Positions 3,474 to 55,571 are shown, counted from the first letter of the stretch. The stretch: 64,000 nucleotides of DNA from an uncultured archaeon (GCA_964619365.1 CAZUDQ010000004.1:3963-67962); one strand, 5' to 3'. Notes: a model not told the origin generated them from the letters alone. A program made the numbers and translations.

Positions 3474-3494
3474 ATATTAATAATCATAATAAAG

Positions 3495-5891: not shown

Positions 5892-5937
5892 TTCCTGATT
5901 ATAAATTATTTTAATAGACTCTTAAGTAATCAAAACG

Positions 5938-6780: not shown

Positions 6781-6815
6781 CTTTTAAACTAAAAGAGTCA
6801 AATATCGCCGCAAAA

Positions 6816-7211
6816 ATGAAGCAGAACAAAAGCAAGAAAGGAACACGAACTGTCCAGAGGCGCACGCGCGCTGGCAACACAGTCTCACATTCCTCAAAAC
6901 AGAAGCCAAGCGCAGCCAAGTGCGGACGCTGCAGTGCTAAACTTTCAGGTATCGCAAGAGACGTCCCAAGCAAGCTAAAGAAACTCCCCTCTACAAAAAG
7001 AACTGTAAAGAGAGAATTTGGCGGTGTCCTTTGCCCCAAGTGTGTAAAGGAAATCGAAGTATACCGCACTCGCGTTGAGGACGGTTGCGAGATAAAGCGT
7101 GATCTTACGATTGAAAAATTCCTCCCGAAAGGCTGGTATGCATCAATCGATGTAAAAACGCCGGAAACAAAGGAAAAGAAATCCTCGGCTAAAAAAGAGG
7201 CCAAGGAATAA
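6816..7211 (+). CDS. rpl34e: 50S ribosomal protein eL34
   Basis: RRT..G, AKCGRCSAKLSG, KR...FGGVLCPKC. Confidence 0.92.
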   Translation: MKQNKSKKGTRTVQRRTRAGNTVSHSSKQKPSAAKCGRCSAKLSGIARDVPSKLKKLPSTKRTVKREFGGVLCPKCVKEIEVYRTRVEDGCEIKRDLTIEKFLPKGWYASIDVKTPETKEKKSSAKKEAKE

Positions 7212-26652: not shown

Positions 26653-26864
26653 AAAAATAAGATGGGCCTAATGGGATGTTAAGGTGGATGCAACGCTATG
26701 GCATATGACCTTAACAGAGATTAGGACCATCGGGCATAAGCTAAGAAAAAAGAAGATGAGCCTAATGGGACCTTGAGGTGGATGCATTGCCAATACCCAT
26801 GACCTTAACAGATATTAGGGCCATTGCTACTAAGGGTGTAAAAAATAAGATGGGCCTAATGGGA
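26653..26864 (-). repeat. Tandem 94-bp-period repeats sharing the tRNA-Ile 3' end and T-tract; two 69-nt hairpin units (26662-26730, 26756-26824)
   Basis: AAAAATAAGATGGGCCTAATGGGA-like segment at 26653, 26746 and 26840; the ATG core recurs at 26662, 26756 and 26850. Confidence 0.92.
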
Positions 26865-26995
26865 TTTGAACCCATGACATCTGGCTAGCTCAGAGCTTTC
26901 GACTCCATTCTTGGGAATCTCAAAACAGACGCGTGGATTTACCACACGCATGCTCGTATAAGACCAGCGCTCTAACCAAGCTGAGCTATAGGCCC
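26851..26995 (-). tRNA. tRNA-Ile (anticodon TAT) with a 70-nt intron at 37/38 (intron 26887-26956)
   Basis: GGGCCTA/TAGGCCC acceptor, GCTC/GAGC D-stem, CTGGT-CT TAT A^..^A-GCCAG, ATGGG TTCAAAT CCCAT, A73; BHB motif with GAGC/GCTC stem, CTTA/TGAG central helix and two 3-nt bulges. Confidence 0.93.
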
Positions 26996-27013
26996 ACAAA
27001 AATGCCTAATATC

Positions 27014-27160
27014 AAAAAGTAAGATTTTCTTATTTTCCAACGTTTGCTTATCTTGGGTTGCATAGCAACCCGACCATACTCCTCCGGTATCTCGGAGAAA
27101 GTAAGATTTTCTTACTTTTTGTTTTGCTCATCCCTCGGATATCCGAGGCTTCTTATTTTG
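27014..27160. repeat. Cluster of five palindromes/inverted repeats between tRNA-Ile and the COG1361/ABC operon
   Basis: AAAGTAAGA-TTT-TCTTA(T/C)TTT twice (27016, 27098), GGGTTGC-ATA-GCAACCC (27055), CTCCG-GTATCT-CGGAG (27082), CCTCGGATATCCGAGG (27133). Confidence 0.85.
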
Positions 27161-27321
27161 AGCCAAACTATTAAAAAACAAAACAAAATACCAACAAAGT
27201 ACAAAAAACTCTCCAGGGCAGCTAAAAGTTACAGCTTTAGGCGACTCGTTTCACTCTTTCTTATAGGCTGTTTCATCACAAAGAATATAGAATCAGTTAA
27301 AAGAATTCAAATTTTAAGCAA

Positions 27322-28998
27322 ATGAACACAAACAAATCTAAAGCGACACTTGCGGTTTTTTTGTTGTCGGCCTTTTTAGTCGCATCACAATCCGCAATTG
27401 GATCAACAAGCGGAGCGCAGACGCCAACGAGTCTGATTATCGACTTTTCGATAACTCCTTCAGACACAGAACTTGAACCAGGTGAAAGCAACATAATAAA
27501 TGTTGCAATAAAAAACACAGGTGGTCAGCCCGCCGAAGCTGTAAAGCTTACTGTAAGCGGTACTGGGAGTGTGATTGCAGGAGGGGGCTATTATATCGGA
27601 GACATTCCTGCGGGAGACACAAAGACAGTCCCAATAACCGTCCGCGCATCAACTTCACCCCAAACAAGATTAAGCAGAGTCAATGTAATGATATACTACA
27701 CAGGCTTTGATTCAAATGGAAATTCTGACAGGACTTATGACAACTGGCAGATACCTGTTTTTGTAGATATCCCCTCCATGTTCTCAGTCGAGACAAGTAC
27801 AAACACGCTTTTTGAAGGGGCACCAATCCCAGTAACATTTTCATTATCCCCTTCAGATAACGCATTTAGTGTTTATGCAGAATTCGAATCGGATTGTGCA
27901 ACGGTAATTGGTTCATCAAAAGTGTTTTTAGGCGATATTGTGGCCTTAACAAACGCCAATGACGAGCTTATCCCAGCTAAAGACGTCACCTTTGCATTGA
28001 GTCCAACAGGTTCAGATTCTTGTACTGGCAACTTAAAGCTTGACTACATAACAAAAGCAGGGTCAAACGCCAATGACGAGATTCCAATAGGCTTTAGTAT
28101 CGGGGACTCTCCAGTCGATTTTAAGATTACGGGTGTCAACTACTCGACAATCGTTCCTGGCGGAACAACAGACCTTGAAATAACCCTCAAAAACGGGGGG
28201 AGTTTTACTGCAGAGGACACTACAATCTCCTTTGAATTAAAAGACCCGTTTGTCCCTATAGAAAGCTCTGAAGTCTATATTGGGGACGTCGCACCTGATG
28301 AAACTGTCACAGCAGACTTTAAGATGGGTGTAACTTGGGACGCAGAAACAACCATATACTCAATGACCTTTAACATCTGTTACAAGCTTACAGGCACTGA
28401 GGTCTGTCAGGAAAAAATGATAGGTGTTGACGTGGTGGGTGACATAATCCTTGAGATTATCGGCACAAGTTCCACGTCATCAGGACTTAGTGTTGAAGTT
28501 GCAAATCTTGGGACAAGAAGTGCAGATGCCATCGTTGCAACATATTACTCTGGAAATCAGGGAGCGACAACAGGAGAGTTCCCAACGACACAAAGGTCTG
28601 ATTTTTCAGGAAAACAGAACTCAAACACTACAAGACCCAGTTCCGCACCCGAATCTGATATGCCCAGTGGAAATGGTATTGTGGACTACAAGTCAGACAT
28701 AAAGGCGGGAAATCAAGGAACCTTTACGTTTACTGGCGCATCATCAACCGAAGGTGGAACGGTAGTTTTTGAGTATACTGGAGCAGGAAACCAAAGAATC
28801 ACCCAAGTCGAGACCTTACCTTCCTCAAGTGGCGGCTCTTCAGCCACGACAGGTGACATGAATGCAAAACGCTCTTCTAGTGGCGGATTTGGACTTGTAG
28901 AAATAGCTATAATAATAGTTGTCGTAATAACCCTCTACTATGCGTACAGGAAAAAATATTTCGATAGGTTCTTAAAGAGGGAAAAAGGTTCTGAGTAA
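27322..28998 (+). CDS. COG1361-like S-layer/Ig-domain membrane-anchored protein
   Basis: Signal peptide, repeated (I/L)KN.G..AE....YIGD(I/V).PG(D/E) modules, C-terminal TM followed by basic residues. Confidence 0.8.
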   Translation: MNTNKSKATLAVFLLSAFLVASQSAIGSTSGAQTPTSLIIDFSITPSDTELEPGESNIINVAIKNTGGQPAEAVKLTVSGTGSVIAGGGYYIGDIPAGDTKTVPITVRASTSPQTRLSRVNVMIYYTGFDSNGNSDRTYDNWQIPVFVDIPSMFSVETSTNTLFEGAPIPVTFSLSPSDNAFSVYAEFESDCATVIGSSKVFLGDIVALTNANDELIPAKDVTFALSPTGSDSCTGNLKLDYITKAGSNANDEIPIGFSIGDSPVDFKITGVNYSTIVPGGTTDLEITLKNGGSFTAEDTTISFELKDPFVPIESSEVYIGDVAPDETVTADFKMGVTWDAETTIYSMTFNICYKLTGTEVCQEKMIGVDVVGDIILEIIGTSSTSSGLSVEVANLGTRSADAIVATYYSGNQGATTGEFPTTQRSDFSGKQNSNTTRPSSAPESDMPSGNGIVDYKSDIKAGNQGTFTFTGASSTEGGTVVFEYTGAGNQRITQVETLPSSSGGSSATTGDMNAKRSSSGGFGLVEIAIIIVVVITLYYAYRKKYFDRFLKREKGSE

Positions 28999-29029
28999 TT
29001 AGTCGGGCCTTTTCCAAAAAATAACTGCC

Positions 29030-30265
29030 ATGTCAACAACGCTAAACATCGCCGTCAGAAATATAACGCGCCATAAGGCAAGAAGTGCACTTACAATATT
29101 TGGAATACTTGTGGGTATCGGTCTTGTTATGGTACTTGGTGGCATAACTGAAGGGCTTAATCAGCAACTTCAGGACCAGTTCCAAAACATGGCTGCGACA
29201 ATTACAGTTTCAGACTCAGGTGGTGACGGTATTGATGACGATGTGGTTGAGGAGATTCGTGGCATACCTGGTGTCGAGAGTGTTGTTGAAACAGGGACTT
29301 ATAATATAGAGCGAAATGTTCGGGGCAATGAGATGGGCTTTGGCACCAAAAGCGGAGGCATAATGATGGATGCCGGACGCATGCCTGGCGAAGGCTCCTT
29401 TGGTGTTTCAATAACTTTTACAGCAATACCAACAGAAGAGTTCTCAAGTATTGTAAGTGACGAGATAGGAGTACTAAGCGGTCGCAAATTAGAAGGGTCT
29501 GACGAAGGTACAAATTATGTGGTTTTGGGTTATAGCTTAGCAGAGGCCCAGGGATTAAATGTTGGCGATGAAATTGAGTACATCCGCGAGATTAAAAAAT
29601 CCCAGATTGATGAAGATGAAACAAGAGAGGAAACTCATTATTTTGAAGTAGTAGGCATTCTTGAAGAAGCGGATTCAGATGATATTGATAAGGCAGCATA
29701 CGTTCCCCTTGACACCATGCAAAATATTGAGGAGGATGACAAAATATCAAAGCTAGTAGTAACAGTAACTGATGTGGATGTGGTTGAGGAGATATCTGAA
29801 GAAATTGAGAACAGGGTTGATGATGTTTCTGTGCGCTCTGCAATAACAATGGTTCGCCAACTCGAATCGATGCTTGGCGGTGTTCAATTAGCACTTCTTG
29901 GAATTGGCGCAGTTGCAGTCTTTGTCGGCGGCCTTGGAATAATAAACACTATGCTTACTTCAGTCATGGAAAGAAGGCGAGATATGGGTGTTATGAAAGC
30001 GGTTGGCGCAACTGAAAAGATGATTCTTTCCCAAGTGATAACTGAAGCCGTCATAATGAGTCTTATCGGAGGTATTGGCGGAATATTAATAGGGTACATT
30101 GCAGAGCGGACAATGCCCGGGATTATAGGTATGGATGTTGTTATGTCACCCTTCTTGGTAATACTGGGACTTGGGTTTGCAGTACTCTTAGGTGTTTTCT
30201 CTGGAATTTATCCTGCCCATCAAGCATCAAAATTAGATCCAGTGGAGGTGTTGGCATATGAATAA
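29030..30265 (+). CDS. ABC transporter permease (MacB/FtsX family)
   Basis: RSALTIFGILVGI, GIINTMLTSVMERRRDMGVMKAVGA, YPA..ASKLDPVEVL.YE. Confidence 0.93.
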   Translation: MSTTLNIAVRNITRHKARSALTIFGILVGIGLVMVLGGITEGLNQQLQDQFQNMAATITVSDSGGDGIDDDVVEEIRGIPGVESVVETGTYNIERNVRGNEMGFGTKSGGIMMDAGRMPGEGSFGVSITFTAIPTEEFSSIVSDEIGVLSGRKLEGSDEGTNYVVLGYSLAEAQGLNVGDEIEYIREIKKSQIDEDETREETHYFEVVGILEEADSDDIDKAAYVPLDTMQNIEEDDKISKLVVTVTDVDVVEEISEEIENRVDDVSVRSAITMVRQLESMLGGVQLALLGIGAVAVFVGGLGIINTMLTSVMERRRDMGVMKAVGATEKMILSQVITEAVIMSLIGGIGGILIGYIAERTMPGIIGMDVVMSPFLVILGLGFAVLLGVFSGIYPAHQASKLDPVEVLAYE

Positions 30266-31046
30266 AAGTCGCGAGAGGGAACTGGCAGAAGAAGATCAGA
30301 TTTCGATAAAATGCGAAGACCTTGTTAAGGTGTACAATAAAGGCAAACCAAATGAATGCAAGGCACTTGATGGAGTCTCTTTTGAAGTCAAAGAAGGCGA
30401 GTTTGTAGCAATTGTTGGCCACTCTGGGTCTGGAAAGTCAACGCTTCTCCATCAGATAAGTTGTCTTGATACTCCAACAAGTGGAATTGTTAAGATTGGA
30501 GGGAAATTAACAAAAGGTCTTAGCGGCGATGGAAAGGCGCAGCTTAGACGGGACAAACTGGGTTTTGTCTTCCAGCAATTTAATTTAATTAAAAGTCTCT
30601 CGGCACTTGAAAACATCACACTTCCTATGGAATTTGCTGGAAAAAGCAAGAAAGTGTCTGAAAAGCGTGGCCGTGAACTATTCGCTCTTGTCGGACTTAC
30701 TGGCAAAGAAGAAAACCTGCCGACTCAACTTTCAGGAGGCCAGCAGCAAAGGGTGGCAATAGCGCGCGCCCTTGCAAACAACCCGCAGATAATAATGGCA
30801 GATGAACCCACTGGAAATCTTGATTCGGTCACAGAAAAAGAGATATTAAGAATACTAATAGAACTTAATAGAAAAGAGAAAAAGACCCTAATCATTGTCA
30901 CGCATGAACCGTCTCTGGCTGAAACGGCCGATAGAGTAATAAAGTTAAAAGACGGCCATGTTGAATTCGATCGCAAAGGAAAAGGTAATGCAGAAAAGCT
31001 TCTTGGTGTCGGTTCTTTAAAGAGAATAACCTTGCATGAGGATTAA
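30258..31046 (+). CDS. ABC transporter ATP-binding protein (LolD/SalX type)
   Basis: GHSGSGKST, LSGGQQQRVAIARAL, ADEPTGNLD, VTH. Confidence 0.95.
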   Translation: MNKSRERELAEEDQISIKCEDLVKVYNKGKPNECKALDGVSFEVKEGEFVAIVGHSGSGKSTLLHQISCLDTPTSGIVKIGGKLTKGLSGDGKAQLRRDKLGFVFQQFNLIKSLSALENITLPMEFAGKSKKVSEKRGRELFALVGLTGKEENLPTQLSGGQQQRVAIARALANNPQIIMADEPTGNLDSVTEKEILRILIELNRKEKKTLIIVTHEPSLAETADRVIKLKDGHVEFDRKGKGNAEKLLGVGSLKRITLHED

Positions 31047-31606
31047 ATCTCAATCAGATTCGCAGACTCTTCTTCGACCTCAAGAAATATGGCCTCAGAA
31101 TTCTTGTGGCCCCCAGTGTTTAATTTTTCTCTATAATCTTCATCCAAAAGATGCGAAAGCATTACTAGAAGAGCGCCGTTGTGACTTACAACAATTATTG
31201 TATCCTCACTATGCTCTTTTTTGATATCTGTTATGAACTCTTTGACTCGCATTAAAACTTCGTCCCAAGTTTCCCCACCCGGAGCTCCCCAATCAGATCT
31301 CATAAGACTTTCTGGAAAACAATCAGAGCGTTTCTTTCCTGTATGAATCCCCAAATCCCTTTCTCTTAGTCTTTTGTCTGTCTTAAAAATCGTCTTTGGA
31401 TGTTTGGATAGGATTTCTTCAGCCGTTTCTTTGGCTCGCCTAAGGTCGCTTGAATAAATGTAATCTGCGTTTTGGTTCTTTAACTCTTCTGAAAGTTCTT
31501 TGTTGCGCAACTTCCCTTCTTGACTTAAAGTTCCTTGCAAATGGCCCTGTAAAATGTCATTGATATTCTCTTCAGTCTTACCGTGTCTAACAAGAATTAG
31601 CCTCAT
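31043..31606 (-). CDS. Histidine phosphatase (phosphoglycerate mutase family), start moved to ATG 31606
   Basis: LVRHGKT, SSDLRRA.ETA, RLRE, GGET, VVSHNG. Confidence 0.9.
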   Translation of the reverse strand: MRLILVRHGKTEENINDILQGHLQGTLSQEGKLRNKELSEELKNQNADYIYSSDLRRAKETAEEILSKHPKTIFKTDKRLRERDLGIHTGKKRSDCFPESLMRSDWGAPGGETWDEVLMRVKEFITDIKKEHSEDTIIVVSHNGALLVMLSHLLDEDYREKLNTGGHKNSEAIFLEVEEESANLIEI

Positions 31607-31610
31607 GCTC

Positions 31611-32885
31611 TTAAATCTTTTCCCACTTACCCAGTTCAAGGATTTGCCCAAGACTCTTGCCACCCTCAATTTCAGCCTTTACACGTTCCTCTTTTTCCTT
31701 TACATAAAGCGCTCTTTTTGAGATTTCAAGAGCACGCTTCTTTGGGATTATGACAACGCCGTTTTTATCGGCAAGTATGTAGTCGCCCGGACACACTTCC
31801 TGCCCCCCGCATCTTATTGGAATATTAAGTTCTCCCATTCCTTTTGGCTCGCCGGCAGCAGGGCTTATGCAGCGCGCATAAACTGAGAACCCCATGTTTT
31901 TTATTTCATCAATATCGCGCACGCCTCCGTCGATTACAAGTCCTGCAATCTTCTTTTTAACGGCACTTAGCGTCGCAAGTTCGCCCCAGAGGGCAACCTG
32001 GCTTTCATGTGCGTCAATAACTATGACATCGCCTTCTTCAGCACGGTCTATTGACTGGACTGTTTTTGACCAGTCGCCGGGATACGCGCGCACTGTAAAT
32101 GCCTTGCCAAAGAATTTATTGTTAAACGAAACTGGTCGCAGTCCATGCATTTCACCTCGTCTGTGCATGGCATCACTAACATGACATGTGCTGACCATTC
32201 CAAGAAGCTCTTCAACGCTTTGAGTCGCAATCTCGCCTTTTGTTTTGTGGGTCATGCGTGCATCGGCTATTGCTTTTTTGTATTCAGCAGCCTTTTCCTT
32301 TGCGTTAGCGGCTTTTGTTATGCCCCCGCCAACAACAATGACTTCAGCACCTGAAAGTATTGCATTTTTTGCACCCTCAACACTAAGTCCACCCCCAACG
32401 GCAATCGGAACGCTAGTAGTTCCTGATATTGCCTTTAAATCGCTAAATACGTTTTTTCCAATCATCTGCTGGTCGATTCCAGTGTGGACCATTACATAAT
32501 CTGCTCCAAGCTCAACTGCGCGTCCTGCGGCCTCTTCAAGGCGCTTGACATTAAGCAAGTCAACGACAACTTCGCAGCCAAAGTTCTTTGCAGCTTCAAC
32601 TGCCTGAATAAGTGTTTGTTCATCGGCCGTACCCATCACAGTTACGATATCAGCCCCGGCTTTTGCAGCCATCTCGGTTTCAATGTCGCCGGTATCGGCA
32701 ATCTTTAAGTCAGCAACAATCTTATGTTTGGGAAATGCTCGCCTAAGCTCGCGCACAACATCCATGCCACAGGCTTTTATCAGAGGAGTTCCTGCCTCAA
32801 TCCAGTCTACAGAGTCCTTTACTTCTTCAGCCACCTTAAGCGCGCGGTCAAGGTCCACAAAGTCAAGAGCTACTTGGAGAGTCAT
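31611..32885 (-). CDS. 3-hexulose-6-phosphate synthase fused to an RraA/HMG-aldolase-like domain (start moved to ATG 32885)
   Basis: LQVALD, IEAGTPLIK, DLKIADTG, VHTGID, VGGG; then HVSDAM, GDW, WGELA, IDGGVRD, GD.ILAD..GVV. Confidence 0.88.
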   Translation of the reverse strand: MTLQVALDFVDLDRALKVAEEVKDSVDWIEAGTPLIKACGMDVVRELRRAFPKHKIVADLKIADTGDIETEMAAKAGADIVTVMGTADEQTLIQAVEAAKNFGCEVVVDLLNVKRLEEAAGRAVELGADYVMVHTGIDQQMIGKNVFSDLKAISGTTSVPIAVGGGLSVEGAKNAILSGAEVIVVGGGITKAANAKEKAAEYKKAIADARMTHKTKGEIATQSVEELLGMVSTCHVSDAMHRRGEMHGLRPVSFNNKFFGKAFTVRAYPGDWSKTVQSIDRAEEGDVIVIDAHESQVALWGELATLSAVKKKIAGLVIDGGVRDIDEIKNMGFSVYARCISPAAGEPKGMGELNIPIRCGGQEVCPGDYILADKNGVVIIPKKRALEISKRALYVKEKEERVKAEIEGGKSLGQILELGKWEKI

Positions 32886-32977
32886 TTGAATTCCTTTTTC
32901 TGTGTTTGGGCGAATTGAAACTATAAGCTTAAAAAAGCATAGCATTTAAATCTGTAAATCTTATATCTAAGTAGATT

Positions 32978-33844
32978 ATGCCATTTAAAGAATCATTAAT
33001 GAGACCTTGGCTGAAGTATGTGCAAAAAAGAAACGAACGCCTTGGTCTGGACTATAAAAAAGCGATAAATTCTGTCGGCGGATATAAACTCGTTATAACT
33101 ACAGATTCTCATCAGTTTACAGCCAAGGATCATGACTTATACTATAAACATTCAAACCCCAAACTCCATGTTGCAATAAATAGTTACAGCGAGATGCCCG
33201 CGCTTGTAAGGTCGCTGGGTCCGTTTTTAAAAGAAAGAGATATAAGCCATAAATTCATTGATTCGCCCCTAGGTATGCGTATTATCAATTCTGATGTGAG
33301 TGCCGGAAAATTTCTTACAGTTTATCCAAAAAGTCCTGAGCATCTTGTGGACTTAGTTCCTGAGATTGAAAAAGAATTAAAAAAGACGGGAGTAAAAACT
33401 CGAAAGCGAGAGGCAATACTTCCTCTTACAAGCAGAGCCATTGGGAAAACAGGCCTTGTTTTTTACAGGCATCCAATGCCTGAGGAAACTGGTCACAGAG
33501 TATATGACACCGAGAAAGGCGAATTATCTCATTCACCAATAGAGGATTCACGCGCAGCTAATTTACACAATCCAATATTTGGTCCAGACAAAGTTGCAGA
33601 TATTGCCGCACAGAAAAAGATCCCCATAGAAGAATTGGACGGGATGCATGCAAGAAACCAAGAACAAATATCAAGAATTTTAAAGGAGAACAAAAAGAAG
33701 TTCCCTAGTTCTAAGGAAGTTGCTCGCCTAGCCCAAAACCAGAAAACTCTTAAGGATGTCCATAAGTTCAATAAACGAAACGAGAAGATGTATGGACCCA
33801 AAGGATCAATGCGAAATCGCCCAAAACAACACAGAAGAAAGTAA
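32978..33844 (+). CDS. Stand-alone LanKC/RamC N-terminal (OspF-like phosphothreonine lyase) domain protein with basic tail
   Basis: KLHV, HKF, AGKFLTVYP and FYR occur in the same order as the class III lanthipeptide synthetase lyase motifs (WKIHVS, FK, SGKFITIYP, YRYG); no kinase or cyclase domain. Confidence 0.6.
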   Translation: MPFKESLMRPWLKYVQKRNERLGLDYKKAINSVGGYKLVITTDSHQFTAKDHDLYYKHSNPKLHVAINSYSEMPALVRSLGPFLKERDISHKFIDSPLGMRIINSDVSAGKFLTVYPKSPEHLVDLVPEIEKELKKTGVKTRKREAILPLTSRAIGKTGLVFYRHPMPEETGHRVYDTEKGELSHSPIEDSRAANLHNPIFGPDKVADIAAQKKIPIEELDGMHARNQEQISRILKENKKKFPSSKEVARLAQNQKTLKDVHKFNKRNEKMYGPKGSMRNRPKQHRRK

Positions 33845-33950
33845 CTCTCCCTTTTTATACCTTAGCTTAGAAATTTAGGGGGGAGGAAACGGCTTAGAAT
33901 GCAAGAGATGCATTAGTACCCTTCTCACATGAGTCTAATTTTATTAGAAA

Positions 33951-35214: not shown

Positions 35215-35281
35215 AAAACAGGCATTATTTTTGCCTGTTTATACTTTTTCTATTTTTAAGATTTATTCGCATAAACTAGTT

Positions 35282-36223
35282 ATGTACGCGCCACCAGACC
35301 CGGTTTCAAATCACCAGACCCAGATGATTATGAACATGGTAGTTTCAATATTTCTCTTAATAGGGGTACTAATTGTTCTCCAATACTTCAATTTTATCTA
35401 CCTCAATGATATACCAGTCTTTGGGGGGTGGGCAATGGACATATATGAACAAGTATTTGGCACCCCAAAAGTCCTGATACTTCATGGCAATGATTCGGTT
35501 GGAGATTGGAAGGAATTGCGGGACCAGCTTAGCTCTGAGATGTCCATTAATGCGGGCATGTACTTTAACTATGAAGATATTGATATCCGGGAGTATGATG
35601 CGGGCATGGAAAGCAAACTTGAAAATTACGGTCTTGTTATTGTTGAAGATGCACTTGAAATAGACAAGGGCAAGCTCATAAACCTAGATAATTTCGTGAA
35701 AAATGGAGGTAATCTTGTTTGGGTCGGTGATGCAGGTACGATTGGTGTTGTTGAATATGAGGATACGCCCATTGCGATACAATATGGCTGGGAACGCTCT
35801 GTTGTTTGCGTAAATCCGGAAACAAAAACTGAGTGTGATTGCTCAACAGTTGCAAAAAACTCGACTTGCAAATACCTAAACGAACAAGCAGAGCGCACAA
35901 AAGTAGATTTCGAAGCAAGACTTGGCGCGGCATTTGTAGAAGATGTCAATCTCACAAATCCACAAATAAAGATTGTTGATACAGACCACTGGGCAATGAG
36001 TGGGATAAACCAGTTATTTGGCATAAATTCGACAAAAGCGGCCAAAGTCAAAAACGGATATGAGACAGAGCTTGTCGCAAATGTACTGCAGGGAGATGAT
36101 ACTTATCCTGGGGTATTTGTTCAGGAAGGGCCTGGAAGGACCGGAACTGTGCTTTACTTCGCATACCCTCCCGAGGATACATTAGAAGTGCTTTTACCGC
36201 TTATAGGGCGCATGAGATATTAA
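35282..36223 (+). CDS. Hypothetical membrane-anchored protein (possible GATase/ThuA-like fold)
   Basis: Long ORF; N-terminal TM; FVKNGGNLVWVG motif; likely ATG at 35282. Confidence 0.6.
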   Translation: MYAPPDPVSNHQTQMIMNMVVSIFLLIGVLIVLQYFNFIYLNDIPVFGGWAMDIYEQVFGTPKVLILHGNDSVGDWKELRDQLSSEMSINAGMYFNYEDIDIREYDAGMESKLENYGLVIVEDALEIDKGKLINLDNFVKNGGNLVWVGDAGTIGVVEYEDTPIAIQYGWERSVVCVNPETKTECDCSTVAKNSTCKYLNEQAERTKVDFEARLGAAFVEDVNLTNPQIKIVDTDHWAMSGINQLFGINSTKAAKVKNGYETELVANVLQGDDTYPGVFVQEGPGRTGTVLYFAYPPEDTLEVLLPLIGRMRY

Positions 36224-36290
36224 CTTTAAACCCATTTGAATATTTATAGACTCAACCCTCTAAATTAGTCGGATAAAAACCACCCGTATA

Positions 36291-36701
36291 ATGGCAAAGG
36301 ACCTAAGTTATCTTATTGGACGCTTGCAGGGACTAAATGAGCTTGTAAAGATTCTAAAAGGCGTCGTTGACAAAGATAAGAATGCAGACTCAGAGATGGT
36401 CAAAGTTATGACCGACCATGTAGCAGAGCAACTCACTTCAATACTTTCCGATCTTGATGAAATTGGCATGGACAACAATCAGCAAGTCGCTCTTGCTGAT
36501 ATAAAGGCAAAACATGTCATGCCAAACGAACCAGAATCAAAAGATGAGGAAGAAATTTCTGATTTAAAAGACGATGCAGAAGGGGCCGAATCTAAAACAG
36601 ACGAACCAGCGCCTGACGAAGAGCAAAAGCCTGCCGATATTGATCAGCATCAAAAGACAGTTGACGATCTCCTGCATGACCTTGAAGCAATGCAGACTTA
36701 G
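36291..36701 (+). CDS. Hypothetical acidic protein
   Basis: 136-aa ORF filling the intergenic space, TATA-like sequence upstream. Confidence 0.65.
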   Translation: MAKDLSYLIGRLQGLNELVKILKGVVDKDKNADSEMVKVMTDHVAEQLTSILSDLDEIGMDNNQQVALADIKAKHVMPNEPESKDEEEISDLKDDAEGAESKTDEPAPDEEQKPADIDQHQKTVDDLLHDLEAMQT

Positions 36702-36750
36702 GCAATATAATCCCCAGTAAGGTTTTTCTTGGCAGTCCCATTTTATTCAC

Positions 36751-37284
36751 ATGGAAACTGCGTGCATGGGGGGCGCGGGATGTTTTGACCCATTATCATT
36801 AATAGTCCTTGTCCCACTCGTTATACTTGCCATTATCTTTGTATGGGCAATACAAAAGAAATCGCGCGCAACAATTGCGATAAAGGCTTCATACATATTC
36901 ATAGCTTTAGACCTTGTTCTTTTTTTAATAGTTCCTGTATGCTCCGTACCCTTCCCATGCTACGTTTGGACTCTCGTACCGCTTGTGATGTTTGGTATGC
37001 TGATATTTTTCCTCCTTAGGCGTTTTAAGCACGACTACGAGCATGAAAAGAGGCTTGTTCACGCGATGGTAGACGGTCACATAGACCCAAGAAACGTTTC
37101 AGAAGTGCTTGCCGTAAGTTCAAGCAAAAAACAAGATAAGAAAGCCAGCACGCAGGAAGAAAAAAAGGAGAAAGAGGAAAAACCCACCGAAGTTAAGCTC
37201 AATGAAGTTGAAAAGATAATTTCAGAGGCAAAAGCCGCAAACAAAAAACGCAAGGTTGCGGCCAGTAAAAAGAAGAAGGATTAA
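36751..37284 (+). CDS. Hypothetical 3-TM membrane protein with Lys-rich tail
   Basis: Three hydrophobic segments followed by a charged tail. Confidence 0.65.
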   Translation: METACMGGAGCFDPLSLIVLVPLVILAIIFVWAIQKKSRATIAIKASYIFIALDLVLFLIVPVCSVPFPCYVWTLVPLVMFGMLIFFLLRRFKHDYEHEKRLVHAMVDGHIDPRNVSEVLAVSSSKKQDKKASTQEEKKEKEEKPTEVKLNEVEKIISEAKAANKKRKVAASKKKKD

Positions 37285-40844: not shown

Positions 40845-41948
40845 ATGGAAAATAAAACTCTTGAGGATATTTTCCAGCTCAAAGAATATTCTCTTAGTTC
40901 TAAGGAAAAGGAAGAAGTTCTCTTGCCAATCATAAAAGAGGGCGTCAAAAGAGCCAGGAGAAACCCCCAAATAGACTCTTTTTTAGAAAAGGAATCATTT
41001 GATTCTGAAAAAATATCTTCCTTAAGTCAGATTCCTGGGGTACCTATACAGATGTTTAAGGATATTGACCTTTCGACTTGTGACAAAAAGGATATAATCC
41101 AGATACTAAAATCCAGTGGGACAACATCATCAGAACAAAGCAAAGTGCCGCTAAACCAAGAAACCTTAATCAATCAGGGGCGAGCTTTCCAGAGCAGTAT
41201 CGTGAATTATTTTGGTTCTGAAAAACGCGTATTTCTTGTAATAGACCACAAAGGCATAATTGACCCAAAGCGTGAGATAACTTCACGGACAGCAATAGTC
41301 CGTGCGCCCTTAAGATATGCCAAAGAGACATATTTTCTCTTAAAAGAAACGGAGGATGGGAGATTAGTCTTGGACATGGACGTAATCAACGAGGTAATCA
41401 GAAAACACTCAAATGATGATATAATAGCATTCGGGTTTACTTACATTGTATGGAGCGTTTTTTATAAACAGGCAAAAGATGCAGGCATTTCCTTTAAATT
41501 TCCAAATCTCAAGCTTTTCCATGCGGGCGGTTGGAAAAAGCTCTCAGAAGAAAAAGTATCAAAAGAGGCGTTCTCAAAAGAGCTTGCGAGACTTTTTGGA
41601 ATATCCTATAAGGAAGTTTGTGACTTTTACGGAATGGCAGAGCAAAACGGGGTAATCTTTATTGATTGTAAAGAAGGCAATAAACACGTGCCAAATTTTG
41701 CCAAGGTTATAATCCGGGACACACAGACATTAGAACCTGTACAAAAAGGCCAGACTGGGATAATTGAGATAATGAGTGCCCTTGGGACAAGTTATTATTC
41801 TCAGGCCATCCTGACAGAGGATTTGGGTGAATACCTTGGCGATGATGATTGTCCATGCGGTCGGCATGGCGAATACTTTAGATTCAAAGGAAGGCTCAAA
41901 AAAGCTCCTCTTCGTGGATGTGGAGATACCTTCAAGGAGAAAAAATAA
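40845..41948 (+). CDS. luxE: LuxE-like acyl-protein synthetase
   Basis: SSGTTS, FGFTY, HAGGWKK, DFYGMAEQ, ILTEDLG, GR....LRGC. Confidence 0.88.
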   Translation: MENKTLEDIFQLKEYSLSSKEKEEVLLPIIKEGVKRARRNPQIDSFLEKESFDSEKISSLSQIPGVPIQMFKDIDLSTCDKKDIIQILKSSGTTSSEQSKVPLNQETLINQGRAFQSSIVNYFGSEKRVFLVIDHKGIIDPKREITSRTAIVRAPLRYAKETYFLLKETEDGRLVLDMDVINEVIRKHSNDDIIAFGFTYIVWSVFYKQAKDAGISFKFPNLKLFHAGGWKKLSEEKVSKEAFSKELARLFGISYKEVCDFYGMAEQNGVIFIDCKEGNKHVPNFAKVIIRDTQTLEPVQKGQTGIIEIMSALGTSYYSQAILTEDLGEYLGDDDCPCGRHGEYFRFKGRLKKAPLRGCGDTFKEKK

Positions 41949-43222
41949 TAAACTGTTATTTTCTTTCAGGGAAAAAAGTAGAGAAACAAATTACAGATTT
42001 TAGCGAAATAGAAATTGTCTTAGAAAAGAATCGAAAAGACCTTTATAATATGGGTCTTGAAGGTGTCATAAAAATTCTCTCAGAACTATCAAAACATATT
42101 CTTTCCAACCAAGAACTTCTTCAGATAGGATACATGGAATATCTTTCAGATTGGTTAAGCGAAAAAAACCTTAGAGAAATTTGTAACAATAATTATGGCG
42201 TTAAAAATCCTTTTGAGCAAAGCCAAGATTTAAATGGTCTAAAAATTATTGCCGCACCAAGAGGTATTGCTAGTCATTGGGTCGCCGAGAACATACCGAC
42301 TATTGCAATTTTCTCACTTGTCCAGGGACTTCTTTCACTTAATGCCAATGTTATGAAAGTTCCAAAAAATTCAGTACACCCAATCTGTTTAATTCTGGAA
42401 ATACTCTCCGGAATTGAACTTGAGTTTAATGGAAAGAAACTTTTAGGTTCAGACCTGTCAAAAAATGTGGTTATCACAACATTTCCCAGTTCAGAGACTT
42501 TCGCAGGGAACTCACTTTCACAAATAGCTGATGTAAAGCTAATTTGGGGTGGCAAAGAAGCAGTGAGCTCAATTACCCAAATGCCACAAAAAGAGCATTG
42601 CGAGATTCTAACATTCGGACCAAAATACTCATTTGGCGTTTATGCTAAGGATGCAATAGAATCAAATCTTGAAGAGAATCTAAAAGGTTCTGCCTTAGAC
42701 ATCGTACTTTTTAATCAGATGGCATGCTCATCCCCACATGTCTTATTTTTTGAAAAGAGCAAGTATCCTTTGGATGAAATAGCCAACAAGCTAGCTGAGG
42801 CATTTGACTCCACACCTAAAAAATATTTTATGCCCCTAAATGATGAACTTGTATCAAAAATTATGAATAAACGGGGCGAATATCTTCTTGACAAAAAGAA
42901 GGTTATAAAAAAATCAAAGACTTTGGAATGGACAATTCTACTAGATAACAAGCTCTCCTTAGAAGAGCCGATAGCAGGTCGTTGCATTTTTCTAAAGGAA
43001 ATAAACTCCATTTTGGATGTAATCCCACTAATCACGCATAAAGTTCAAACAATAAGTCTGGCGTGCCTAGATGACAAATTAACCAACAAATTCTTTAAGT
43101 GCGCAGCTTATGTGGGAGTAAGTCGTATAACTCCTCCCGGAAAGATGCTAGATTTCTATTCGCCATGGGATGGCATGATGCAAGTTTCAAGACTCGTCAG
43201 ATGGGTAAGTCTAAAAAATTAG
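41918..43222 (+). CDS. luxC: LuxC-like acyl-CoA reductase
   Basis: APRG...HW.AEN.P, QGLLSLNANVMK, WGG.EAV, FGPKYS, NQMACSSPH, RI..PG.M, PWDG. Confidence 0.88.
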   Translation: MWRYLQGEKIINCYFLSGKKVEKQITDFSEIEIVLEKNRKDLYNMGLEGVIKILSELSKHILSNQELLQIGYMEYLSDWLSEKNLREICNNNYGVKNPFEQSQDLNGLKIIAAPRGIASHWVAENIPTIAIFSLVQGLLSLNANVMKVPKNSVHPICLILEILSGIELEFNGKKLLGSDLSKNVVITTFPSSETFAGNSLSQIADVKLIWGGKEAVSSITQMPQKEHCEILTFGPKYSFGVYAKDAIESNLEENLKGSALDIVLFNQMACSSPHVLFFEKSKYPLDEIANKLAEAFDSTPKKYFMPLNDELVSKIMNKRGEYLLDKKKVIKKSKTLEWTILLDNKLSLEEPIAGRCIFLKEINSILDVIPLITHKVQTISLACLDDKLTNKFFKCAAYVGVSRITPPGKMLDFYSPWDGMMQVSRLVRWVSLKN

Positions 43223-43271: not shown

Positions 43272-46200
43272 ATGTCAATTAATGATAAATTATTACCTTT
43301 ATTAGAGAAAATCCATCTTGCAGGGTTTTTTGAGGAAAAGAATATCCCGCCCATTGCGTTTCCAATAGGAATGATTGTTCTTATCGGAATTATCGCATTT
43401 TTGTTATTTTCTGGCGGGTCATCTAATGTCATTTGTGGTGACGCTTTATGCGACTCTACAGAAAACTGTACAACTTGCCCTGAGGACTGTGGCAATTGCG
43501 CTGACAGTAAAAAAGAGTTTGAGGGCTTGCCTGCAACAAAAGAAGTAAGTGTAATTTTGACGGGCGCCCCCATACAATCCACACTTAGTGTTTCACTTCA
43601 GGATGATTCTGGAACGACTTTACAAGGCAAGACGGGTAAATCCTCTGAATTCACCTTCCAGATTCCAACTACCGCAAACGTTGTAAGGGCCATAGTAAAA
43701 AACCTAGATACTGGCAATGCAATCAATTCAGATTTTTTCTCTATCGAAGTTGGTGACCCCACAATTCCCGTAATGATTCCATCTGATTTTTTTGACCAGG
43801 GTCATGAAGAAACGGCAACGCTTATTGTGTCACTAAAAAACGCAAAAACGATGACGCCCATATCTGGCAAGATTTCAATTGTGCTACCCAGCGGCTCTTC
43901 TTATAGTGTGGTGGAGACTAAGCAGTCTACAGGCGGGGTTGCAAGTTTTTCTTTAGAACCAGGCACATATGCAGTCATTACAGAAGCAAGTGCTTACTCA
44001 AGTTATGACAACAGGAATAGCCCAGTTACCTTAAGCTCGGGTAGGACGCTTTCAATAACTGCCCCTATGGAACCTGTGACAAAGACAAGAACTATAAACT
44101 TTTGTGCAGGTCAAAACGCCCCGATTATCGCGGTGTATACTAGTTCAGGAACCTTACTCTCAGAACTTACAACAGATTCTTTTGGATGTGCCGAGTTTGA
44201 AATGGACGAGGGAACAACGGGTTATGCCAGAGCAATGGCCTTAGACCCCTCCTGCAGCTCATCTGATGCTATGTTTTCAGAAGATTCCTCAAACTCATTA
44301 GTAATCAGTGTAGTATGTGGAGACATGGTTTCGCAAATACGTGCAGAAGTCATAGGGCTTAACAATGAAGTGCTCACGGAAAACGCTACAGTAAACCTTT
44401 TTTATGAAGACGGAACACGCATAAGCGGAAGCGGGACGGCAGGCGCACTGATGCCCAACGGAACTGCTACAGAATATGTCCATGTCGACTCCACAGACAC
44501 AGTATATTTTGTCGTTACAGGAGTTAATGGATACCTTGATTTTACCTCGAGAAAATACGAAGTGCTTCAGGGAGAAGCTAAGACTGTAAAACTTAATCTC
44601 ATTGTCGCGCCAGAACCCAAACCCGAGATGGAATTCAGGGAGCTATATTTTCCAACAACGGCAATCGCAGGAAAAGAGTTTAAGGTCAGTTTCCAAAAAG
44701 CGCTTTGCAATGGAGAAGATGTCACGGCAACAGAAAACTTCAAGGTTTCTTTTACAGGAGGTAATTGCAGCATACTTGGGACAACGATAACTTATCTACC
44801 CTCAGTCTCTCATTTAGGAGAACAGACAATAGAGATATATAATAATGATAATGCAGACTGCATTGCACTAATAAAAAAGAACATAAGTGTTTTTGAAAGT
44901 GGTGAGAACCCCTTTGAAGTAATACCTTATGCCATCACGGGGTTAGACGCCCCAGTGACAGTGCCCTTTGCAATAACCTTTAACGGAACTCCAATACTAA
45001 ATGATTTTGATTACATATTAAAAGCAAAGTACAGTGAGGGTGGGATTGCCCTTCCCGAAGAACCTTTATTGTCTGAAGCAGATGAATATTTATATACAAA
45101 AATTGATTCACCCTTTACTGGAGATCATGCTTTGGAGATAAATCTTAGCAAAGTAGTAGGCGATGTCTATTACGCAGGCTCTTTTGAGATAAGTAACATC
45201 AGAAGCTATCCCAGAAACCAAAAGATAAAAATAGAGAGTACAGTTAGCCCCAGGTTCCCTTATCCAACGGAAGGATTTTATGTTGCAATCAAATTACAAG
45301 CGGGATCATGGATAATAAAAGGCTTGGAAAACGTTTATGCAGAATTTTACAGTACGACTCAAAAAATGTACTGGAACCCGGCATCACAGATTTATTCTAC
45401 CTCGTTTGAAGCACCCCTTAGCGAGGGCATATTTCCAGTGACCTTTAAGGTGGGTGGGGCGACTCTTGCTGAAGAGAACGTTTATGTCGCAAATACCGCC
45501 CTTGAACGCTCTTCTACGTGTGAAATAGCAAACTGTGCGGATATAAATGATGTCAGAGCATGCGTATACTCACACAACAAGCAGTCCATGCACACAACGC
45601 GTGAAGTGATAGGTTGTTTTGAAAATGGGTGGGGCACAGTACTTTCATCTGAAGAGTTTTCACTACTTCATTGTACGGAGGACAGTGCCTCAAAAGGTGA
45701 TTGGAACAACAACTGCTATCTAGACACGACAGGGGAACTTAGCGACCGTGCGATATTGTCTGAAGCCTTGTCACGACTGTCTGAAGATGAGCTTTACAGT
45801 TATCTGGGCTGTGGGGATATGGACAATGACCTTGATGTGGATAAAGACGATTTAGTATGCCTTACAAACGTTGCTTCAGGCAAATGGTTTGGTGACACAG
45901 GTACTAGTTCAAATTCTGATATATGTTCCTCACAATTAATGGGTGGGTTTTGTTTTGATATCAAAACAAGCTCTGCAATCCCCGGTGATTTTAATAATGA
46001 CAAGGATATCGATTCAGATGATATAGAACTAATGCAGGACATAATAAGGGCTGTTAGAAGTGGAGTCACACCACCTTCAAAATTACTTGCTTTTGCAGAT
46101 TTTAATCAAGATAGGACAATAGGGCAAATCGATCTCGAGTGTCTTGAGAAATTTAAAAACGTCAATTTTGATTCCTATGAGGCATACGGACAACAGGTGT

Positions 46201-48062
46201 CGTTTATACCTTCAGAGTGTTTGGCTGTCTTTAACTTGGAATGTGGGAACAAAGGTGATATTAATGATGATGGTAAGATAGATGAAATAGACTTCACTAT
46301 AATAAAACTAGCAGCAAATGGCCTTATATCAGAAGATGTAGTCGGAATTGAGTGTCTGGATGTGGATATAGATTCAAAAATAACTAAAGATGATGTTACG
46401 TGTCTAAGTGAATATTTCAACGGAGATATGGATGAGTGGATGCTTTGCCTTAATTGTGAAGAAAACTTACCTCCTGAGGCCTGGAGCACTCTTGAGATTT
46501 GCAATGACGGATATGACAACAACTGTGATAACCTAAAAGATTTAGAGGACCCGATGTGTTCCTGCATAAATTCGACTTCATGTGATATGGTTTACGACAC
46601 AGATCGCGGAGTTAATGTTGGTGTTGAAGATGATAAGTACGAAGTATGTCGCAGCGTCTCATGGGATGATCATAAGGGGTACACATGGTATGAATTTCCG
46701 TTCCCTCCAGAATGTGAAAAGGATAATGAGTGTGAAACTTATTCTTGTGATGGGAATACCTGGCAATGCTCTACAGGCGAATGGTACAAGATAGCTCCAA
46801 CCGATACTCTGCCCGGTGAGACATGTGGAGATGGCTGGGACAATGATTGTTCTGGCGGCGATGCAGCCTGTCCAAGCAGAGGCGGCGATGAGGTGCCGGA
46901 TGGATGTCCCTTTATATACGCATATGACGGCAAGAATTATGTCCTAGAGGCTGCAGGGTTTTCACTCGCATTAGCCAAGCCATTAGAAGGTTATAGCTAT
47001 TCTGCCTTGCCGGATATGGCCCCAACAGAAAAAGGAACGTTAAACGTTTCGATAGCCCAGCAGCTTCCAGAGAAAACTCGTGTAAACACCATGCGCCTTT
47101 TTGCCATAAATCATTTGACTGGACTTGAGATAGTCCCTGGGACACAAGGCGAGTTTTATACAATTTTAAATCCCGCCTCACCAGTCTCATGTCACGCAGT
47201 CCTTGCAGACGAGAATTGTCTATCCGGAGTTTTGGAGCCCGAAGGCAAAACATATCTTTATAACTTGAGTACGCGTCCGTACCCATATGATTTTGATAAG
47301 AGTTTTGAATACATGGAACTTACTTTTGACTTGCCCGAAGGCGCCAGTGAAGATGCAGTCATTATTTTAAAAGGAAAAGTTCAACACATGATGGTTTTTG
47401 CAACTTGGGCCATGTTTGAGAATATGGGTAATGGAAACCTTGGCACCTTTGCAGTATCCTTTTTTACGGCCCTGCCCAGCTTCATTGACCGTAATGGTAA
47501 AGTCAAAGTAGACGTAGAACGCAACGGCAACTGGGAATTTGTAGGACATCAAATACTTGCACATTCAATAGCTGGCGACGCCGGGAAGATAGCAATACCC
47601 GTAAAGATTAACAAAGATTCAGACGAGCTTAAAATCAGGCTAGGGTTTAGACAAGGTGGGTTTGAAATAGATTATGTCGCTCTTGACGCGTCAGGAAAAA
47701 GTCCAATAGAAGTCGAGGAACTTCCAATGCTAAGTGCAAAGAAAAATGATGGGAATGATGTCTTGGATGAGCTTCTAACAGACGATGACAAGTATGAGAT
47801 CATAACACAAGGCGAGTGGATAGAAACTGAATTTGCACTCCCCGCACGTAATTCTGATTTACCAGAAACTTCATATGTTGTTTGGCCAAAAGGATATTTT
47901 ACCTTTGAAATAGATTCGCAGTTTACTGTAGCACCCATGGACGTGTTTAGAACAGTTTTTGACGACAGTCTGATGCATGAATACGTGGCTAAGAACTATT
48001 TGCCAAATATTGAAGCTTTCAGGGACGTTTACTACTCAGTAGACATTGGAATAAACGACTAA
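43272..48062 (+). CDS. Giant (1596 aa) membrane-anchored surface protein with Cys-rich repeats and dockerin-like EF-hand loops
   Basis: N-terminal TM; CGD.LCD..ENC.TCPEDC; GD.N.D..ID..D loops; EICNDG.DNNC motifs; GCPFIY.YDG domain. Confidence 0.8.
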   Translation: MSINDKLLPLLEKIHLAGFFEEKNIPPIAFPIGMIVLIGIIAFLLFSGGSSNVICGDALCDSTENCTTCPEDCGNCADSKKEFEGLPATKEVSVILTGAPIQSTLSVSLQDDSGTTLQGKTGKSSEFTFQIPTTANVVRAIVKNLDTGNAINSDFFSIEVGDPTIPVMIPSDFFDQGHEETATLIVSLKNAKTMTPISGKISIVLPSGSSYSVVETKQSTGGVASFSLEPGTYAVITEASAYSSYDNRNSPVTLSSGRTLSITAPMEPVTKTRTINFCAGQNAPIIAVYTSSGTLLSELTTDSFGCAEFEMDEGTTGYARAMALDPSCSSSDAMFSEDSSNSLVISVVCGDMVSQIRAEVIGLNNEVLTENATVNLFYEDGTRISGSGTAGALMPNGTATEYVHVDSTDTVYFVVTGVNGYLDFTSRKYEVLQGEAKTVKLNLIVAPEPKPEMEFRELYFPTTAIAGKEFKVSFQKALCNGEDVTATENFKVSFTGGNCSILGTTITYLPSVSHLGEQTIEIYNNDNADCIALIKKNISVFESGENPFEVIPYAITGLDAPVTVPFAITFNGTPILNDFDYILKAKYSEGGIALPEEPLLSEADEYLYTKIDSPFTGDHALEINLSKVVGDVYYAGSFEISNIRSYPRNQKIKIESTVSPRFPYPTEGFYVAIKLQAGSWIIKGLENVYAEFYSTTQKMYWNPASQIYSTSFEAPLSEGIFPVTFKVGGATLAEENVYVANTALERSSTCEIANCADINDVRACVYSHNKQSMHTTREVIGCFENGWGTVLSSEEFSLLHCTEDSASKGDWNNNCYLDTTGELSDRAILSEALSRLSEDELYSYLGCGDMDNDLDVDKDDLVCLTNVASGKWFGDTGTSSNSDICSSQLMGGFCFDIKTSSAIPGDFNNDKDIDSDDIELMQDIIRAVRSGVTPPSKLLAFADFNQDRTIGQIDLECLEKFKNVNFDSYEAYGQQVSFIPSECLAVFNLECGNKGDINDDGKIDEIDFTIIKLAANGLISEDVVGIECLDVDIDSKITKDDVTCLSEYFNGDMDEWMLCLNCEENLPPEAWSTLEICNDGYDNNCDNLKDLEDPMCSCINSTSCDMVYDTDRGVNVGVEDDKYEVCRSVSWDDHKGYTWYEFPFPPECEKDNECETYSCDGNTWQCSTGEWYKIAPTDTLPGETCGDGWDNDCSGGDAACPSRGGDEVPDGCPFIYAYDGKNYVLEAAGFSLALAKPLEGYSYSALPDMAPTEKGTLNVSIAQQLPEKTRVNTMRLFAINHLTGLEIVPGTQGEFYTILNPASPVSCHAVLADENCLSGVLEPEGKTYLYNLSTRPYPYDFDKSFEYMELTFDLPEGASEDAVIILKGKVQHMMVFATWAMFENMGNGNLGTFAVSFFTALPSFIDRNGKVKVDVERNGNWEFVGHQILAHSIAGDAGKIAIPVKINKDSDELKIRLGFRQGGFEIDYVALDASGKSPIEVEELPMLSAKKNDGNDVLDELLTDDDKYEIITQGEWIETEFALPARNSDLPETSYVVWPKGYFTFEIDSQFTVAPMDVFRTVFDDSLMHEYVAKNYLPNIEAFRDVYYSVDIGIND

Positions 48063-55236: not shown

Positions 55237-55571
55237 TTAAATACAGCGGCGATTGTTGCTCTAAAAAACATGGGTTCGATAGGGGTTTTTATAGGCTCTT
55301 TATCTAATATAAACACCCCAACTGGAGAATTGGTTAATCAAAAACACCTAAAAAAAGCCACAAAAACACTAAGCTTTTTATAGGATGAACGATTAACTTA
55401 CACGTTCAAATTGATGGCCCGAACATCATGTAACCGAGCTGCAAAGGCAGTAGCCACGACTCACGGCGTTTTCGTTGCAGTAGTTCAGACGTCAAAAAGA
55501 GCATCAGATATCATGTTTTATGGGCATTTTGCCTCGTTATCTATATAAGAACCAAAATTTTGGTAAAAAAA

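Follow-up and report, generated by a model that had tools for sequence, protein, structure and literature searches.

A stand-alone RamC_N-type lyase-like gene in an uncultured archaeon

The window analyzed here is a stretch of 64,000 nucleotides (64 kb) from an uncultured archaeon (GCA_964619365.1, CAZUDQ010000004.1:3963-67962), with positions counted from its first letter. On its plus strand, an open reading frame (ORF) at positions 32978..33844, with an ATG start, encodes a protein of 288 amino acids (aa) followed by a stop codon, and this stand-alone RamC_N-type lyase-like gene, whose product has an isoelectric point (pI) of 9.9, is the subject of this work. The original prediction, made from the DNA sequence, had proposed that it encodes a solitary phosphothreonine lyase domain of the kind found in lanthipeptide synthetases. 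The ORF and all the motifs that it listed proved to be real, with the residue numbering also correct: K62-L-H64 (KLHV), H91-K92 (HKF), G110-K111-F-L-T114-V-Y116-P117 (GKFLTVYP), Y163-R164, and a very basic tail, RPKQHRRK, at residues 281-288. An identical protein is present on independent JGI and ENA salt-lake contigs, and contigs assembled from the DNA of four salt-lake metagenome runs showed zero differences from the window. The gene is therefore not an assembly artifact, and for the same reason the four runs offered no population variants and no ratio of nonsynonymous to synonymous changes (dN/dS).

A Pfam scan of the protein gave one significant family, RamC_N (PF25816; E 3.4e-6, 27.1 bits versus a cutoff of 27, residues 62-136), which is the N-terminal lyase domain of RamC, LanKC, and LanL. 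The NCBIfam LanL and LanKC equivalogs produced weak matches over the same stretch, and the Pfam scan of the 288-aa protein contained no OspF-family match. As the Pfam label precomputed for the protein already reads PF25816, the domain call itself is not new. An exhaustive phmmer search against 1.8 billion representatives retrieved 24 proteins, including the orthologues P0002-P0005 (352-371 aa; E 9e-20 to 3e-12 over residues ~58-274), which reach 44-67 bits on RamC_N. Nearly all the more distant relatives that were scanned also hold RamC_N; the exception, P0007, looks spurious as a relative, having been matched via short repeated stretches only. A word-indexed protein search retrieved the query alone, and profiles added little to it. 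When a family profile built from the query and 19 relatives was compared with the PDB, the best matches were the ThurKC structures 8SAM, 8SAO, and 8SAP (E 1.5e-23), followed by PneKC, SalKC, and CuvL (to 1e-9), and SpvC/OspF chains were not reached at E<=10. Two further matches were dismissed, one to a uL4 extension (phmmer of the query against the PDB, E 0.006) as compositional and meaningless, and one to Pfam ORF6N (E 0.009) as weak and insignificant. Because the orthologue matches, the profile matches to LanKC structures, and the AlphaFold and Foldseek results described below agree, the homology to RamC_N is secure. The motifs are far beyond chance, and the 288-aa protein is truly homologous to the lyase domain at the N-terminus of class III/IV lanthipeptide synthetases, as had been claimed from its motifs, with the full catalytic set.

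A single-sequence AlphaFold2 (AF2) model was unusable (predicted local distance difference test, pLDDT, 43) and was replaced by a model from a 20-sequence alignment (pLDDT 74.8; predicted template modeling score, pTM, 0.73), in which the lyase core has a pLDDT of about 80-97 over residues 60-140 and 62-93 beyond. A Foldseek search of the PDB with this AF2 model returned LanKC-type synthetases as its first 14 matches (182-213 aligned columns), in the order ThurKC (E 1.3e-6), PneKC, CuvL, and SalKC. After these came HopA1 (4RSW, 4e-3) and SpvC (2Z8O, 1.4e-2; template modeling score, TM, 0.45 on target), and the class V lyase complex LxmKY (9DK2_B) was matched weakly (E 0.78). The predicted structure has the compact alpha/beta lyase fold of the ThurKC lyase domain, and the model points to the fold shared with the OspF/SpvC/HopAI1 effectors. 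Structural similarity to these lyases, on which the original prediction had staked its case, was found, LanKC lyase domains leading the matches and HopA1 and SpvC also being among them; the kinship with OspF and SpvC that it asserted holds for the fold, with no sequence-level family membership. Viral structural relatives were sought with Foldseek in BFVD, with no significant match.

To place the active site, the alignment of the family profile to ThurKC was read alongside the ThurKC structure paper and the VenL paper. By these equivalences K62 corresponds to K65 of ThurKC and K104 of SpvC, H64 to H67 and H106, K92 to K94 and K136, K111 to K117 and R148, Y116 to Y122 and Y158, R164 to R163 and R213, and R192 to R191 and R220, respectively. 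R192, which had not been listed in the original prediction, completes the phosphate-binding set, and by alignment the protein carries the catalytic and phosphate-binding residues of the RamC_N family. In SpvC, K136 acts as the base and H106 as the acid, the substrate carbonyl is polarized by K104 and Y158 (VenL paper), and phosphate is bound by K104, R148, R213, and R220 (ThurKC structure paper). Mutants K65A and R163A of ThurKC are inactive, and R191A accumulates phosphorylated intermediates (ThurKC structure paper). In an alignment of the five orthologues, where 33 of 269 columns are invariant, all seven active-site residues belong to these invariant columns (hypergeometric P 2e-7), and six of the seven fall among just 8 invariant columns in the 20-sequence alignment (P 5e-8), K92 (putative base) and H64 (putative acid) being invariant in all 20 aligned relatives. 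This is the pattern that purifying selection on a working catalytic pocket would be expected to produce.

The N-terminal region of the protein (residues 1-57; 32978..33148, plus strand) has a predicted helix at 5-21, weak conservation, and low model confidence, and is not alignable to the N-termini of the orthologues. The lyase core follows (residues ~58-204; 33149..33589, plus strand), delimited by the Pfam match, the profile matches to the PDB, the AF2 model, Foldseek, the ThurKC residue map, and invariance, and holding K62, H64, K92, K111, Y116, R164, and R192. It is followed by a subfamily-specific C-terminal helical module (residues 205-272; 33590..33793, plus strand), recognized in the alignment and the AF2 model, with predicted helices at 205-212, 220-241, and 246-272 (pLDDT about 83-94 to residue 260 and 74 beyond). 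By alignment, this module is common only to the P0002-P0005 orthologues, and LanKC and LanL lack it; its only other matches are the insignificant ones to ORF6N and uL4. The protein ends in a very basic tail (33794..33841, plus strand; ...GSMRNRPKQHRRK), disordered in the AF2 model, which stands where the 352-371-aa orthologues carry a C-terminal module of ~70 aa. A six-frame look through the window for the C- or N-terminal modules of the orthologues gave zero remnant, so that the shorter C-terminus reflects a clean loss rather than a frameshift; a frameshifted or split gene was ruled out on this ground and by the next gene being 107 bp away.

The composition of this protein raises the possibility of a catalytically inactive or re-purposed protein that binds phospho-residues, nucleic acid, or the ribosome, or of a lyase acting on a small phospho-ester metabolite. 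Its very high pI, its K/R-rich helical C-terminus, the insignificant similarities to the uL4 extension and ORF6N, its length below that of the orthologues, and the lack of a known substrate would suit such a binder, whereas the invariance of K92 and H64 in 20 relatives and the retention of the full phosphate-binding set are as expected for a working enzyme. As for small molecules, the characterized members of the family all act on peptide-bound phosphoserine (pSer) or phosphothreonine (pThr) (ThurKC and VenL papers). We therefore regard a non-catalytic or metabolite-directed role as unlikely.

Upstream of the gene, a TATA-box-like TTTAAAT lies at 32945-32951 (plus strand; -33 to -27 from the ATG), and A/T boxes resembling it precede the orthologues in the loci L003 and L010 at similar distances, in line with the TATA-like promoter that the original prediction had assigned to the gene from sequence alone. 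Transcription from this box would give a leaderless or near-leaderless mRNA. An oligo-T run (CCCTTTTTAT; 33852..33856, plus strand), terminator-like for an archaeon, lies 8 nt past the stop codon, with a similar run after the L003 orthologue. Box and run together are in keeping with leaderless, monocistronic expression of an archaeal gene between a promoter and a terminator of its own. The intergenic region is shared with a divergent gene for a fusion of HPS (OMPdecase fold) with an RraA-like domain, listed at 31611-32945 (minus strand). The first 20 codons of this listed HPS-RraA ORF are missing from orthologues that are 75% identical, which makes the ATG at 32885 its probable real start. Such a start leaves a divergent intergenic region of 92 bp that contains an A/T-rich element (32921..32937, minus strand; CTATAAGCTTAAAAAAG on the plus strand) conserved in the window, L003, and L010, which is probably the HPS-RraA promoter.

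Besides the divergent HPS-RraA fusion, the flanking genes encode a His_Phos_1 phosphatase and a MacB-type ABC transporter, and an MgtE-like gene and a PhoU/TrkA_C gene lie downstream of the lyase gene. The Pfam scan took in about 50 of the 63 ORF candidates of the window, all larger ones included. Among the genes scanned are those for ribosomal proteins, SecY, aminoacyl-tRNA synthetases, HcyBio, deoxyhypusine synthase, phosphoribosyl pyrophosphate (PRPP) synthetase, a LuxE/LuxC pair, and S-layer and dockerin proteins. The placement of the gene among unrelated housekeeping genes, as described originally, is borne out by these Pfam assignments and by the recurrence of the neighbors in orthologous loci.

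Other features of the window were recorded alongside. A tRNA gene of 145 nt with a long intron (26851-26995, minus strand; Rfam 58.5 bits) was missed by ARAGORN; because of this intron-containing tRNA and of the archaeal ribosomal proteins in the window, the source is an archaeon. In L003 (3113-7497), the gene for isoleucyl-tRNA synthetase directly adjoins HPS-RraA, whereas the corresponding part of the window (26851-31669) has added genes in between, namely the intron-containing tRNA, a 558-aa CARDB protein, a MacB/FtsX-type ABC transporter pair, and the His_Phos_1 phosphatase; the difference would represent an insertion or a lineage-specific island. At 35231-37284 (plus strand), three genes in a row encode a 330-aa protein with a weak ABC_transp_aux match, a very acidic 136-aa protein, and a 177-aa membrane protein with a K-rich tail; L010 keeps their order and L003 part of it, with identities of 33-55%. 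A LuxE-like acyl-protein synthetase gene adjoins one for a LuxC-like acyl-CoA reductase at 40845-43222 (plus strand) in this archaeal window. Two large proteins, one of 1596 aa (43272-48062, plus strand) whose sole match is a dockerin type I domain, and one of 1019 aa (55560-58619, plus strand) with an S-layer outer-domain match, are probably surface proteins.

The partners expected of a lanthipeptide synthetase were looked for both within the protein and around it. RamC_N is the sole Pfam domain match of the 288-aa protein, which has no kinase domain, and no LANC_like domain was found in it or in any scanned gene of the window. No protein kinase, RIO kinase, or LanC was present among the Pfam-scanned ORFs, and a six-frame tblastn search of the whole 64 kb with the kinase regions of LanKC-like proteins gave no match. 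An adjoining cluster of precursor, protease, and transporter genes was not found, small precursor ORFs not having been searched exhaustively. The claim that the gene stands alone, with no kinase, cyclase, or precursor gene adjoining it, is upheld by these scans.

Orthologues occupy the same chromosomal position, divergent from HPS-RraA, in L003 (P0005), L008 (P0002), and L010 (P0003-like), followed downstream by MgtE and PhoU genes, in part with a SAICAR synthase gene, or by the 330/136/177-aa trio of the window. P0004 (locus L005) lies in another context, with thiamine genes, NUDIX, and an aminotransferase, which is also unrelated to peptides made by the ribosome and modified after translation (RiPPs). 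Directly downstream of P0004 is a conserved 58-aa ORF (L005 9182-9358; also in L006 and L007), followed in L005 by an Aminotran_5/SepSecS-family gene. A functional link of the lyase gene to HPS-RraA, MgtE, or PhoU was considered from synteny and dismissed, as the genomes are closely related (neighbors 71-87% identical) and the P0004 context differs. Peptide-pattern scans of GTDB genomes and JGI metagenomes added one new locus (L010) and one known already, so the orthologue group is rare. The gene is inherited vertically within a small group of salt-lake archaea, in which it keeps a fixed place on the chromosome.

The proteins encoded by flanking genes share 71-77% identity between the window and the L003, L008, and L010 loci (62-87% among these loci), whereas the lyase-like proteins share only 27-33% (29-46% among the loci). 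With identities so far below those of its neighbors, the lyase gene is the fastest-evolving gene of its neighborhood, and its catalytic set is unchanged. All five orthologues are very basic (pI 9.6-10.2), with acidic neighbors (pI 4.3-5.7). The speed at which the C-terminal helical module and the basic surface have diverged points either to co-evolution with a partner that itself changes quickly or to constraint that is relaxed outside the active site.

The nearest relatives outside the orthologue group are solo proteins, some of them archaeal, and fusions to FHA, with no lanthipeptide synthetases among them. FHA is a pThr-binding module. The solo RamC_N proteins P0016 and P0021 are encoded on clearly archaeal contigs with RadA-like, Cdc48, ribosomal, eIF2-alpha, Nop10, and Hjc genes, and RamC_N-FHA fusions are found in P0006, P0013, P0017, P0018, P0024, and P0031-P0035. 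None of the closest 24 relatives has a kinase domain, kinase-fused relatives appearing at much weaker scores only. Every relative that carries a name is annotated as 'hypothetical protein', and a literature search brought up no work on RamC_N proteins that stand alone or are fused to FHA. Some relatives have unusual surroundings or architectures. P0018 (JGI 3300056388, genes 151-7211) is a bacterial-looking fusion of FHA and RamC_N encoded directly after genes for a WYL/WCX regulator, a PDDEXK_4 nuclease-like protein, and an ATPase of the SMC/AAA_15/AAA_23 type, and such surroundings are typical of defense islands. P0006 (2266 aa), P0009 (2048 aa), and P0035 (708 aa) are giant or multidomain proteins in which RamC_N sometimes occurs twice, together with EDR1/CTR1/ARMC3 peptidase-like, FHA, EF-hand, or LysM domains, and their architectures are unlike that of any lanthipeptide synthetase.

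These observations bear on the proposal, also made originally, that the protein is a trans-acting lyase of a split, lanthipeptide-like RiPP pathway, in which a separate kinase and a precursor would be encoded elsewhere and the dehydroalanine or dehydrobutyrine formed would serve for cyclization. The lyase family is best known from LanKC and LanL, arrangements of stand-alone kinase plus stand-alone lyase have been predicted bioinformatically (Khater & Mohanty 2014), and a separate kinase and lyase do occur in class V, although with a different lyase fold (LxmKY). Yet within the 64 kb the gene has no linked kinase, LanC, protease, or RiPP-type transporter, its position beside housekeeping genes is kept in four loci with a fifth context (L005) that is also non-RiPP, class III/IV clusters have been reported from bacteria only, and its closest kin are not synthetases but proteins that are solo or FHA-fused. 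A split-pathway role is in our judgment very unlikely.

A further explanation is that the protein is an inter-organism effector or antagonist that erases Ser/Thr phosphorylation in a host, a partner cell, or a virus, comparable to the action of OspF and SpvC on mitogen-activated protein kinases (MAPKs). Its rapid evolution around an invariant active site, its strongly basic character in an acidic proteome, and the defense-island-like context of one FHA-fused relative (WYL/WCX, PDDEXK, SMC-like ATPase) are consistent with such a role. However, no signal peptide or other secretion signal was seen in the protein, no secretion system in the window, and no mobile-element context at the gene, which descends vertically at a fixed chromosomal site. 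PADLOC found no defense-system match for the query and four relatives and has no model for P0018, and the BFVD search likewise provided no viral relatives. The premise of a 'likely symbiotic archaeon' is unsupported, because these genomes encode considerable biosynthesis: the window and related contigs are rich in genes such as those for HcyBio, PRPP synthetase, HPS, GATase, SAICAR synthase, thiamine, and GlnA/Amt/P-II, and this gene content looks metabolically competent. Action on a host is pure inference, and an effector role seems to us rather improbable.

Our preferred interpretation is that the gene encodes a free-standing, active lyase that removes phosphate by beta-elimination from pSer/pThr in proteins or peptides whose kinase is encoded elsewhere; we consider this probable on balance. 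With homology, fold, residue conservation, solo architecture, synteny, evolutionary rate, and charge as observed, the activity, the protein substrates, and the role of the C-terminal region can be outlined in conditional terms. From homology, we infer that K92 would abstract the alpha-proton of a pSer or pThr residue while H64 protonates the leaving phosphate, with the substrate carbonyl polarized by K62 and Y116 and the phosphate held by K62, K111, R164, and R192. The product would be dehydroalanine or dehydrobutyrine, and the site could never be re-phosphorylated. The likeliest substrates would be phosphoproteins or phosphopeptides produced by kinases encoded elsewhere, rather than a lanthipeptide precursor, because the gene is apparently monocistronic, is vertically inherited, and has no fused or adjoining kinase, cyclase, or precursor. 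The fusion of the lyase domain to pThr-binding FHA in several near relatives offers a link to phosphoproteins, and the conserved helical C-terminal module, together with the strongly basic surface, may be the substrate-docking part.

Several points weigh against an active protein-directed lyase. The RamC_N score of the protein itself sits at the curated cutoff (27.1 versus 27 bits), and the clustering of the seven residues in one pocket rests on the alignment to solved LanKC structures. The ~70-aa C-terminal module that is conserved in the orthologues is lost here and the N-terminus is non-alignable, for which reasons the window copy could be decaying or functionally shifted, and the fast evolution of the gene might stem from weak constraint and not from an arms race. 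A search for RNA-seq runs carrying the lyase gene found none, and no substrate, kinase, or FHA partner was found in the 64-kb window, as distinct from the whole genome.

Two settings are known for phospho-Ser/Thr lyases: they form domains of bacterial lanthipeptide synthetases, and they serve as secreted virulence effectors that put host MAP kinases permanently out of action. The free-standing RamC_N lyases described here have an intact active site, occupy ordinary surroundings on the chromosome in several archaeal lineages, and are fused to FHA elsewhere. If they are active, archaea would possess a native post-translational mechanism that removes phosphorylation sites irreversibly, and such small monofunctional enzymes forming dehydroamino acids might find use in protein chemistry. 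Goto et al. 2010 proposed that stand-alone kinases and stand-alone lyases gave rise to the LanL enzymes, and the free-standing RamC_N lyases would, if active, also be candidates for the ancestral lyase so postulated. As a tentative extension, archaea and the bearers of solo or FHA-fused RamC_N proteins may use irreversible pSer/pThr eliminylation of proteins as a native regulatory or antagonistic modification, these proteins may represent the stand-alone lineage behind lanthipeptide synthetases, and the fast-evolving basic surface may co-evolve with a changing target such as the phosphoproteins of a partner cell or virus.

Among known systems, the lyase domain of LanKC/LanL enzymes (ThurKC, PneKC, SalKC, CuvL, VenL, RamC) is the closest, with a homologous profile, the best structural match, and in common with the window protein the ordered motifs KxH, (H/F/W)K, GKxxTxYP, YR, and DxR and the seven active-site residues. 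In contrast to these enzymes, the window protein is fused to neither a kinase nor a LanC cyclase, lacks a precursor and a biosynthetic cluster, is archaeal rather than bacterial, and carries its own helical, basic C-terminal module. It is not a class III/IV lanthipeptide synthetase, since a kinase, a cyclase, and a cluster were each looked for and not found. The OspF/SpvC/HopAI1 effectors share with it the fold class, the stand-alone architecture, an equivalent K/H/K/Y tetrad, a basic phosphate pocket, and substrates that are likewise presumed to be proteins and not RiPPs. They differ in that there is no sequence-level membership, in that K111 replaces R148 of SpvC, as it does in LanKC, and in that the window gene is chromosomal, vertically inherited, and archaeal, with no type III secretion system and no known MAPK docking motif. 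The HopA1-like LanY/LxmY proteins of class V lanthipeptide and thioamitide pathways are also stand-alone lyases with a separate kinase and have a distant fold similarity, but they belong to another sequence family (PF17914) and always lie beside the kinase in a biosynthetic cluster, whereas the window protein has no kinase nearby.

The only phospho-lyase-fold proteins proposed earlier in archaea are BLES03/C11orf68-like (Khater & Mohanty 2014), a group of predicted lyases found in archaea and eukaryotes; they are unrelated in sequence to the window protein, and their prediction rests on a kinase- and peptidase-rich neighborhood. According to the same authors, lyases of the SpvC-like and LanL-like kinds are confined to bacteria, and Walker et al. 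2020 found class III/IV clusters in bacteria only. What is new here, with respect to all these systems, is a stand-alone, archaeal, non-RiPP, fast-evolving, and basic variant of the lyase, together with the wider FHA-linked clade to which it is related.

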